A stretch of DNA of 64,000 nt from Thermoproteota archaeon (GCA_024720975.1 JANJXX010000002.1:64001-128000); one strand, 5' to 3'. Positions 53,379 through 54,518 are shown, counted from the first letter of the stretch. Made by a program: numbers and translations. The notes: generated by a model from the sequence alone, not told the origin.

Positions 53379-53720
53379 ATGCCTGAAAAGGCAGATGAAA
53401 AAATCCAAAAGCTTGAGCTAATTCAAAAAGAGCAAGTCAAATTCGTGGAGCTTCCTGATGTAGTAGAGCTATACTTTGAGAGGGCTGATAAACCCGGCCG
53501 TGGAATAACAATAACAGTGCCAATAACGGAGCTGTTCGAGAACATCGTGCGTGAGGCTGCCAAGAAGCTCAACTTCAAGAATACACAAGTTGGAGTTCTA
53601 GGAGGTTCTACTCCAGTATCCTTCGTAGGAAAAACTGTTAAAGATGTTATCAAAGAGACATCAAGCGTAAACTTTCAGATTGCTTCCGCTGAAATGCTTG
53701 GGATAACTGGAAGCACTTAA
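53379..53720 (+). CDS. Putative ubiquitin-like (beta-grasp) protein with C-terminal extension
   Basis: Strand-strand-helix-strand pattern (VELYFE / ITITVP / FENIVREAAKKL / GKTVKDV / NFQIAS) ending ...EMLG-ITGST; upstream of JAB gene. Confidence 0.55.
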   Translation: MPEKADEKIQKLELIQKEQVKFVELPDVVELYFERADKPGRGITITVPITELFENIVREAAKKLNFKNTQVGVLGGSTPVSFVGKTVKDVIKETSSVNFQIASAEMLGITGST

Positions 53721-53795
53721 TCTTAGCTTCTTTATTTGATTTCGATTTCTGATTCATGATTAGAGCAAACTTTAAGCGTCCCATTAGTATTTCTG

Positions 53796-54518
53796 GTGGC
53801 AACTCGGTTGGCCGTTCACATTGATAACATACTTTGGAGAACCATAACGAAGATTATTAAAGGTGACACCAACGAGCGAGCTTTTTACCTAGTTGGTTTT
53901 TCTGATGGAGAAAATTACTATGTTATAGAGAGCTTTGAGATTCAATATAAAACTAAAACTCAAGCGTGCATAGTCTCTGATCCGTACGGACGGTTAATAC
54001 TATCAAGTTCACTTCCCGCTGGAGTTAGTATAATAGGTGTAAGTCACAGTCATCCGTTTGACTATAGCAATGAAAAGCCAAAGCCATCAACCATGGATTT
54101 GAGTTTTGTCTACAATTACAAGGAGGAGATAATAATGACAATTAATTCCACTGGGAAAGCGAGTGCTGTGAGATTCTCGGAAGATCTTGAGGAACTCGAT
54201 ATAAAAGTTAGAGACTTCCCAGAAAAACCCAAAGTCCTTCGCATCAAGGGTGTGTACATGGTATTTCCCTGGTGGGCATCTGACGAGATGATAAGACTCA
54301 AAGCACCAAGACTTTATGGAGAAATTCTTTATCGGCTACACTTTCACGCTTACCTTAAAGGAAAAAGAAAGATTGTCGTGCCTCCATATGAGTGGTTCTT
54401 CGTGAGACAAAAGTATGCAATACCCCACGTAGCTTTTGGCAAACTTCGAAATATCGCAAAAGAATATTTACTGAACAATAGTGTCACTAAATTTGCGCAG
54501 AATGTTCATTCCCAATAA
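53796..54518 (+). CDS. JAB/MPN (JAMM) metalloprotease with C-terminal extension
   Basis: NERAFYLVG (Glu); IIGVSHSHP...PSTMD. Confidence 0.85.
   Translation: MATRLAVHIDNILWRTITKIIKGDTNERAFYLVGFSDGENYYVIESFEIQYKTKTQACIVSDPYGRLILSSSLPAGVSIIGVSHSHPFDYSNEKPKPSTMDLSFVYNYKEEIIMTINSTGKASAVRFSEDLEELDIKVRDFPEKPKVLRIKGVYMVFPWWASDEMIRLKAPRLYGEILYRLHFHAYLKGKRKIVVPPYEWFFVRQKYAIPHVAFGKLRNIAKEYLLNNSVTKFAQNVHSQ

Follow-up and report, generated by a model that had tools for sequence, protein, structure and literature searches.

A gene pair for a probable UFM1-type tag and its JAMM protease in a Njordarchaeota archaeon

Two adjacent genes found in 64,000 nucleotides of DNA from a Njordarchaeota (Asgard) archaeon (hereafter the window) probably encode a protein tag and its dedicated protease, which would belong to a conjugation system of the UFM1 type; we assign this reading a probability of roughly 0.8. 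The window spans positions 64001-128000 of contig C19 in an assembly of 1.36 Mb that comprises 29 contigs and is 81% complete. It is archaeal, carrying genes for a family B DNA polymerase, succinyl-CoA synthetase, an archaemetzincin, a GPN GTPase and V-ATPase subunit A. The sequencing runs listed as containing its DNA were all hot-spring metagenome DNA runs, with no RNA run among them, and the close homologues of the tag belong to MAGs named Candidatus Njordarchaeota.

The gene for the pro-form of the tag lies at positions 53379-53720 (+) and encodes 113 aa, with its stop codon at 53718-53720. After a spacer of 75 nt (53721-53795) comes a second gene in the same orientation (53796-54518, +), with a GTG start, whose product is a JAMM/MPN+ zinc metalloprotease of 240 aa. 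A preliminary description of this DNA, made from the sequence, had reported a 113-aa protein ending ...FQIASAEMLG-ITGST and a JAMM gene 75 bp further on, and both open reading frames were recovered as described. For the protease, an in-frame TTG at 53808 would give a product of 236 aa and is the start chosen by gene callers elsewhere (P0016). The JAMM gene was found directly downstream of the tag gene in the five genomes of the genus examined and, in the same order, in four of six genomes of a sister family, where the spacer is of about 10 nt. The pair is conserved in two Njordarchaeales families, and the adjacency was kept on metagenome contigs with differing upstream neighbours.

Two other genes close to the pair are worth recording. 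The archaemetzincin gene (Peptidase M54, E 2e-21; 54468-55010, -) is convergent with the JAMM gene and overlaps its final 51 bp, an arrangement also seen in locus L005. In that same locus (5256-5795), the position of a window gene at 50538-51107 (+) is also kept; its product is a 189-aa protein without Pfam family that bears a C-terminal CxxC...CxxC zinc ribbon.

Fold and C-terminus of the tag

The beta-grasp fold that had been suspected for the small protein was borne out by an AF2 model, by Foldseek and by structural comparison with VIA, all of which agreed. In the AF2 model the first 24 residues, an extension rich in Lys and Glu, are disordered, and the beta-grasp core occupies residues 25-103, with elements in the order b-b-a-b-b-a-b and a pLDDT of 80-92 for residues 25-108. 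Foldseek matched the tag to ubiquitin-like folds only. The ten best structural matches returned by VIA were all UFM1 (Z 10.4-12.8, 74-89 residues aligned), with rmsd values of 1.6-4.6 Å that stayed at or below 2.3 Å in eight of the ten. Scores were lower for USP DUSP-UBL domains (Z about 10) and for SUMO, ISG15 and archaeal ubiquitin (about 9). In the ESM Atlas, the row ranking best by both TM-scores was a eukaryotic Ufm1 cluster (PF03671; TM 0.62/0.79).

Sequence comparisons were less telling. At E<=1 the tag had no match in Pfam, Ufm1 (PF03671) included, or in NCBIfam. Its close homologues form 15 clusters, 65-100% identical to the window protein; when these 15 were made into a profile and run against PDB sequences, a designed repeat protein gave the only matches, which were due to chance. 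A profile of 18 Asgard tags reached PDB UFM1 at a sub-threshold E of 0.28, in an alignment that ended at Gly83 of human UFM1, and the tag of an operon relative matched PF03671 with an E of 0.08. Since Pfam Ufm1 was not matched at the sequence level and the profile E value was 0.28, it is the fold, together with the C-terminus and the partner enzymes, that makes the case for homology with UFM1. The tag is specifically of the UFM1 type, a name that did not appear in the preliminary description.

In human UFM1 a single Gly, preceded by Val, is followed by a short tail, Ser-Cys, that can be removed. The corresponding residue of the window tag is Gly108 (codon 53700-53702, +), the predicted mature C-terminus and predicted site of activation and conjugation, and the ITGST that follows it (53703-53717, +) is an unconserved pro-peptide predicted to be removed. 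The Gly of ...MLG proved invariant, both in the 15 close homologues and in all 18 sequences obtained when distant Asgard operon Ubls were included, and in these 18 it is preceded by Leu or Val. What lies beyond it varies. Nine of the 15 close homologues stop exactly at the Gly, the others adding DS, AP or, in the window, ITGST; AS also occurs among relatives, and all six tags of the sister family end exactly at the Gly. The more distant tags of Asgard operons end in ...LG or ...VG followed by nothing, N, L or DDF, and two relatives carry in-frame fusions. The earlier proposal had left room for removal of ST only, by a cut after Gly111. This site found no support and was discarded, since Gly108 alone is conserved among the homologues.

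Of the two fusions, one (genome G090, L019:1183-1800, P0039) joins the tag in frame to Sec61beta, with ...SSADMLG followed by APP and then by the start and the TM helix of Sec61beta. It comes from one MAG and may be a natural precursor resembling ubiquitin fusions or an artefact of assembly or of a stop codon. The other (G092, L069:6514-7419) joins the tag in frame to a UFC1-like E2 (...SQVG then SKETLG...), and freeing both parts would require a cut after the Gly.

The JAMM protease and its predicted complex with the tag

The Glu and HxH...SxxD residues noticed earlier form a complete JAMM motif on a modelled MPN fold. The catalytic stretch, E...HxH-x11-SxxD, is encoded at 53874-54098 (+) and includes Glu27 (53874-53876), His84-Ser-His86 (54045-54053), and Ser98 and Asp101 (within 54087-54098). 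Glu27, His84, His86, Ser98 and Asp101 were invariant in 24 members of the JAMM family, as were Gly34, Tyr51, Gly81 and Pro87. Conservation on this scale, here and at Gly108 of the tag, exceeds what chance would produce. In Rpn11 the HxH-SxxD spacing is slightly shorter than the x11 of the window protein. No Pfam family, including JAB (PF01398) and Prok-JAB (PF14464), and no NCBIfam family was matched at E<=1. Only 22 relatives reached E<=1e-3 when 1.84 billion representatives were searched exhaustively by HMM, and a word-indexed homologue search gave only one other cluster. As judged from its sequence, the window JAMM is a member of a divergent JAMM subfamily.

The AF2 model of the protease had a pLDDT of 93 and a pTM of 0.90. 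Its best Foldseek match was JAMM1 of Pyrococcus furiosus (E 1e-9, TM 0.83), and in a wide VIA search residues 5-139 were superposed on that enzyme with a Z of 17.6 and an rmsd of 1.6 Å over 126 of 129 residues, at 24% identity. Rpn11, CSN5 and BRCC36 scored Z 12-15, and matches also included the Rpn11 homologue of Caldiarchaeum and bacterial Ubl deubiquitinases. In a tree, the short JAMMs adjoining a tag formed one clade (support 96/95), with longer JAMMs located within full operons as sisters. The long forms (330-480 aa; L024:7383-8813, P0029, P0033, P0035-P0037) continue past the shared C-terminal domain into a stretch whose sequence pattern resembles that of ubiquitin, together with a coiled coil and a basic tail; none of these is present in the short form of the window.

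Residues 140-240 (54213-54515, +) constitute the C-terminal domain of about 100 aa that had been left unexplained. The domain is real and confidently modelled by AF2; it is family-specific and without recognised fold, as neither a wide PDB search nor the ESM Atlas (in which all TM values were below 0.5) gave a convincing match. Its residues Glu176, Tyr179, Pro196 and Gly215 were invariant in four orthologues. A possible function for it came from a model of the tag-JAMM complex, which reached an ipSAE of 0.67, against 0.00 for the best of three controls, a score that may partly reflect likeness to the JAMM-Ubl complexes already solved (5lda, 6fnn). In calibration, 58 of 80 solved complexes attained the ipSAE mark, as did 2 of 110 mismatched pairs. 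At least 88% of the contacts were common to the runs, the pLDDT of the partners was at least 82 and the interface comprised about 130 contacts. In the model, tag residues 102-110, of which two are tail residues, run along JAMM residues 57-68 in the catalytic groove, with Glu27, His84, His86, Ser98 and Asp101 all in the predicted interface with the tag tail. JAMM residues 176, 179-180, 183-188, 196, 214-217 and 220 are predicted to contact the body of the tag, and the C-terminal domain is therefore proposed to act as a clamp on it.

Most likely, ITGST is released through a cut made by the JAMM after Gly108, whereupon E1 and E2 would activate and conjugate the tag. The distribution of tails bears on how general this task would be. 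Since nine of the 15 close relatives need no trimming, the maturation step would be limited to some species; and since homologues that end at Gly, in these nine as in all six of the sister family, mostly keep the adjoining JAMM, unmasking cannot be its sole or main conserved job. Deconjugation is a likely second role. Taken to the extreme, these data might mean that the enzyme is purely a deconjugase (isopeptidase), ITGST being tolerated or removed by another peptidase and the masked Gly being an incidental result of stop-codon drift, and the tails are indeed short and unconserved. Such a restricted role is improbable, given that the whole proteins found after the Gly, Sec61beta in G090 and the E2 in G092, need an endopeptidase cut after that residue and that the complex model places residues 102-110, two tail residues included, in the groove. 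There is also a precedent for both activities in one enzyme, the JAMM homologue of Rpn11 from Caldiarchaeum subterraneum, which matures the tag precursor and deconjugates (PMC6043591). With most orthologues needing no trimming yet keeping the JAMM, and with some relatives bearing whole-protein fusions after the Gly, the enzyme is best read as a general Gly108-specific peptidase/isopeptidase that would both mature and deconjugate the tag.

Activating and conjugating enzymes in Asgard genomes

The preliminary description had seen no E1 or E2 in the window. In a whole-genome HMM scan both were absent from the rest of its contig too and were located on two other contigs only: the genome contains one tag and one JAMM, on contig C19, one UBA5-like E1, at C27:56421-57191, and one UFC1-like E2, at C11:295562-296137. 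The E1, of 257 aa, scored 96 bits with UBA5 (E 2e-26) versus 54 bits with MoeB, and its catalytic Cys and SLPTTM motif were aligned. The E2 had 19 PDB matches, all of them UFC1, in which the Cys and the Trp...Asn-x-Pro-Tyr-x-Gly-Ile-x-His block line up with its own. The profile of the E2 family matched UFC1 at E 1e-14 versus 1.5e-4 for canonical E2s, and the E2 of a relative passes the Pfam UFC1 cut-off. Two components of the eukaryotic pathway were also sought in this genome, which is 81% complete: a UfSP-type protease (Peptidase C78, PF07910) had no match at E<=1, and UFL1 (PF09743) had no clear match, giving one hit of 16 bits, below cut-off, at C11:40380-40706.

The enzymes that are scattered in this genome are clustered in others. 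The JAMM family profile detected full-length members across many Asgard families, and 20 other Asgard loci with such members were scanned using HMMs built in this analysis. A UBA5-like E1 adjoins the JAMM gene in all 20, a UFC1-like E2 lies inside the fetched region, mostly adjacent, in 17, and a UFM1-like tag was detected in seven. In G064 the genes form a tight operon in the order Ubl-E2-JAMM-E1-E2, and in the sister family a tag of the same type lies two genes away from a UBA5-like E1. That the genome encodes both an E1 (UBA5-like) and an E2 (UFC1-like), and that four-gene operons exist elsewhere in Asgard, supports the single-Gly, non-diglycine conjugation system that had been put forward at the outset.

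Sulfur transfer was considered as another use for the tag. As a sulfur carrier of the ThiS/MoaD/SAMP/Urm1 type, it would have its Gly thiocarboxylated by an E1-like enzyme, with the JAMM exposing or recycling the end as in the precedents CysO-Mec+ and QbsE-QbsD. A beta-grasp protein with a C-terminal Gly adjoining a JAMM would suit this role, the genome encodes a MoeB-like E1 on contig C25, and both archaeal SAMPs and Urm1 are dual-function. Against it, the tag has a single Gly after Leu rather than Gly-Gly, its structural neighbours are UFM1 and not ThiS/MoaD, the E1 is closest to UBA5 and not of the MoeB type, and sulfur-metabolism genes are absent from the neighbourhood of the pair. Moreover, the genome, like the operons of relatives, encodes a UFC1-type E2 that bears a Cys, an enzyme for which sulfur transfer has no use. 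A sulfur carrier thus appears very improbable.

Contig C11 also carries a second, unrelated set of Ubl-system genes (L003:1408-3502, -), in which a 219-aa Prok-JAB is encoded directly upstream of a 479-aa E1 whose ThiF domain occupies the C-terminal half only. This JAB-E1 system could in principle cross-react with the UFM1-type tag. That the window pair serves the C11 system, or that it forms a stable non-covalent complex in which the Ubl is a regulatory subunit of the JAMM, would be in keeping with the large predicted interface, of about 130 contacts, and with E1 and E2 genes that are unlinked to the pair in the genus. Both options are nevertheless highly unlikely: an invariant terminal Gly with free variation beyond it is what characterises a conjugated end, and the same JAMM family is found inside E1-E2-Ubl operons across Asgard families.

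Several genes of other kinds accompany the E1 and E2 genes. The UFC1-like E2 gene on C11 has as same-strand flanks one, lying upstream and sharing a small operon with it, for a 122-aa multi-CxxC zinc-ribbon protein with weak RING-like matches (L011:1995-2366, -), which could be an E3 or an adaptor, and one for a 248-aa protein without family (L011:659-1408, -). Beside the UBA5-like E1 in the genus (C27:57268-57690, -, equivalent to L002:2273-2695) there is a gene whose product, a coiled coil without Pfam family, has about 125-140 aa and contains the motif IETPRGxVP. In the sister family (L019:808-1176, L022:1919-2332, L017:2791-3219) it lies between E1 and tag, and it may be a further component of the system.

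Proposed pathway and relation to known systems

In the UFM1-type system that we favour, the tag would be synthesised as a precursor of 113 aa. The 57-68 segment of the JAMM would bind the extended tail (102-110) of the tag and the C-terminal domain would hold its beta-grasp body, with Glu27 acting as general base and His84, His86 and Asp101 as zinc ligands, together with Ser98. A cut after Gly108 would then release ITGST. The UBA5-like E1 encoded at C27:56421-57191 would adenylate Gly108 and load the tag on its conserved Cys, from which the tag would be handed to the catalytic Cys of the UFC1-like E2 encoded at C11:295562-296137 and finally be joined to lysines of target proteins. The JAMM would probably also strip the tag from its targets, and would thereby substitute for the UfSP cysteine proteases of eukaryotes. 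This scheme presumes that both E1 and E2 are specific for the tag.

The eukaryotic UFM1 system consists of UFM1, UBA5, UFC1, the UfSP1/2 proteases and the UFL1-DDRGK1-CDK5RAP3 E3. The window tag resembles UFM1 in its beta-grasp, in its single C-terminal Gly after a hydrophobic residue and in its short removable tail, and the archaeal E1 and E2 are nearest to UBA5 and UFC1, respectively. By contrast, the archaeal protease is a JAMM with an MPN fold instead of a papain-like C78 cysteine protease, the archaeal tag is longer at its N-terminus by an extension of about 24 aa, and the archaeal genes are organised in operons or pairs. Human UBA5 has a C-terminal segment that binds UFM1 and UFC1, whereas the archaeal E1 is short and lacks it.

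Among prokaryotic systems, JAMM1 of P. furiosus and Haloferax is likewise an archaeal JAMM acting on a beta-grasp modifier, and PfJAMM1, a homologue of the SAMP2 deconjugase, is the structure that the protease core matches best; unlike the window JAMM, it has about 130 aa and no C-terminal domain. SAMPs have Gly-Gly ends and a MoeB-like E1, and are not known to use an E2. The Rpn11 homologue of Caldiarchaeum (6fnn), a structural match of the window JAMM, is part of an operon-type archaeal E1/E2 system, in which genuine ubiquitin, ending in di-Gly, serves as the tag and the operon also encodes a canonical UBC E2 and a RING E3. Bacterial Bil/Bub and CBASS Cap2/Cap3 systems share gene sets of the E1-E2-JAB-Ubl kind, and their JABs matched the window protease (8tyx, 9ea5, 9ild; Z 10.9-12.8), but they differ in their E1/E2 families and in their defence context.

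A structure-based search has reported Ufm1 homologues in nine major Asgard clades and in no other prokaryote (Nat Microbiol 2026, PMC12962969), and the window tag fits that description; UFC1, UBA5, JAMM/JAB and Njord are unmentioned in the text of that article. A published survey lists UFM1, UFC1 and UFSP2 as eukaryote-only (PMC10183829). In the literature searched, UFC1 was otherwise not paired with Asgard and no JAMM was described for an archaeal UFM1 system. Asgard Ufm1 homologues were thus already published and their JAMM and UFC1 partners, within that literature, were not. What is new here is a UFM1-type tag with a dedicated JAMM protease, plus UBA5-like and UFC1-like enzymes in the genome, in a layout of a tag-protease pair with unlinked E1 and E2. 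Both the tag and the protease families are missed by Pfam models.

A further observation concerns Sec61beta. In all six loci of the sister family (L017-L022) the gene immediately after the tag, or after the tag-JAMM pair, encodes Sec61beta, and in the window a Sec61beta-like gene (62781-63029, -) lies 8.3 kb downstream of the JAMM gene. This proximity is intriguing, as ribosomes bound to Sec61 are where UFM1 acts in eukaryotes. It is conceivable, if rather unlikely, that the genes represent a surviving prokaryotic form of UFMylation, with the JAMM as the ancestral protease that was replaced by UfSP in eukaryotes, and that the system may already act at the ribosome-Sec translocon. If this were true, the ER-ribosome role of UFM1 would be older than eukaryotes.

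For the archaea themselves, we infer that a JAMM, and not a cysteine protease, serves the UFM1-like tag. The four proteins make up a thermophilic set that is probably easy to express, which would open the origin and minimal mechanism of UFMylation to reconstitution, and a pathway mostly regarded as eukaryotic becomes testable in an archaeon.
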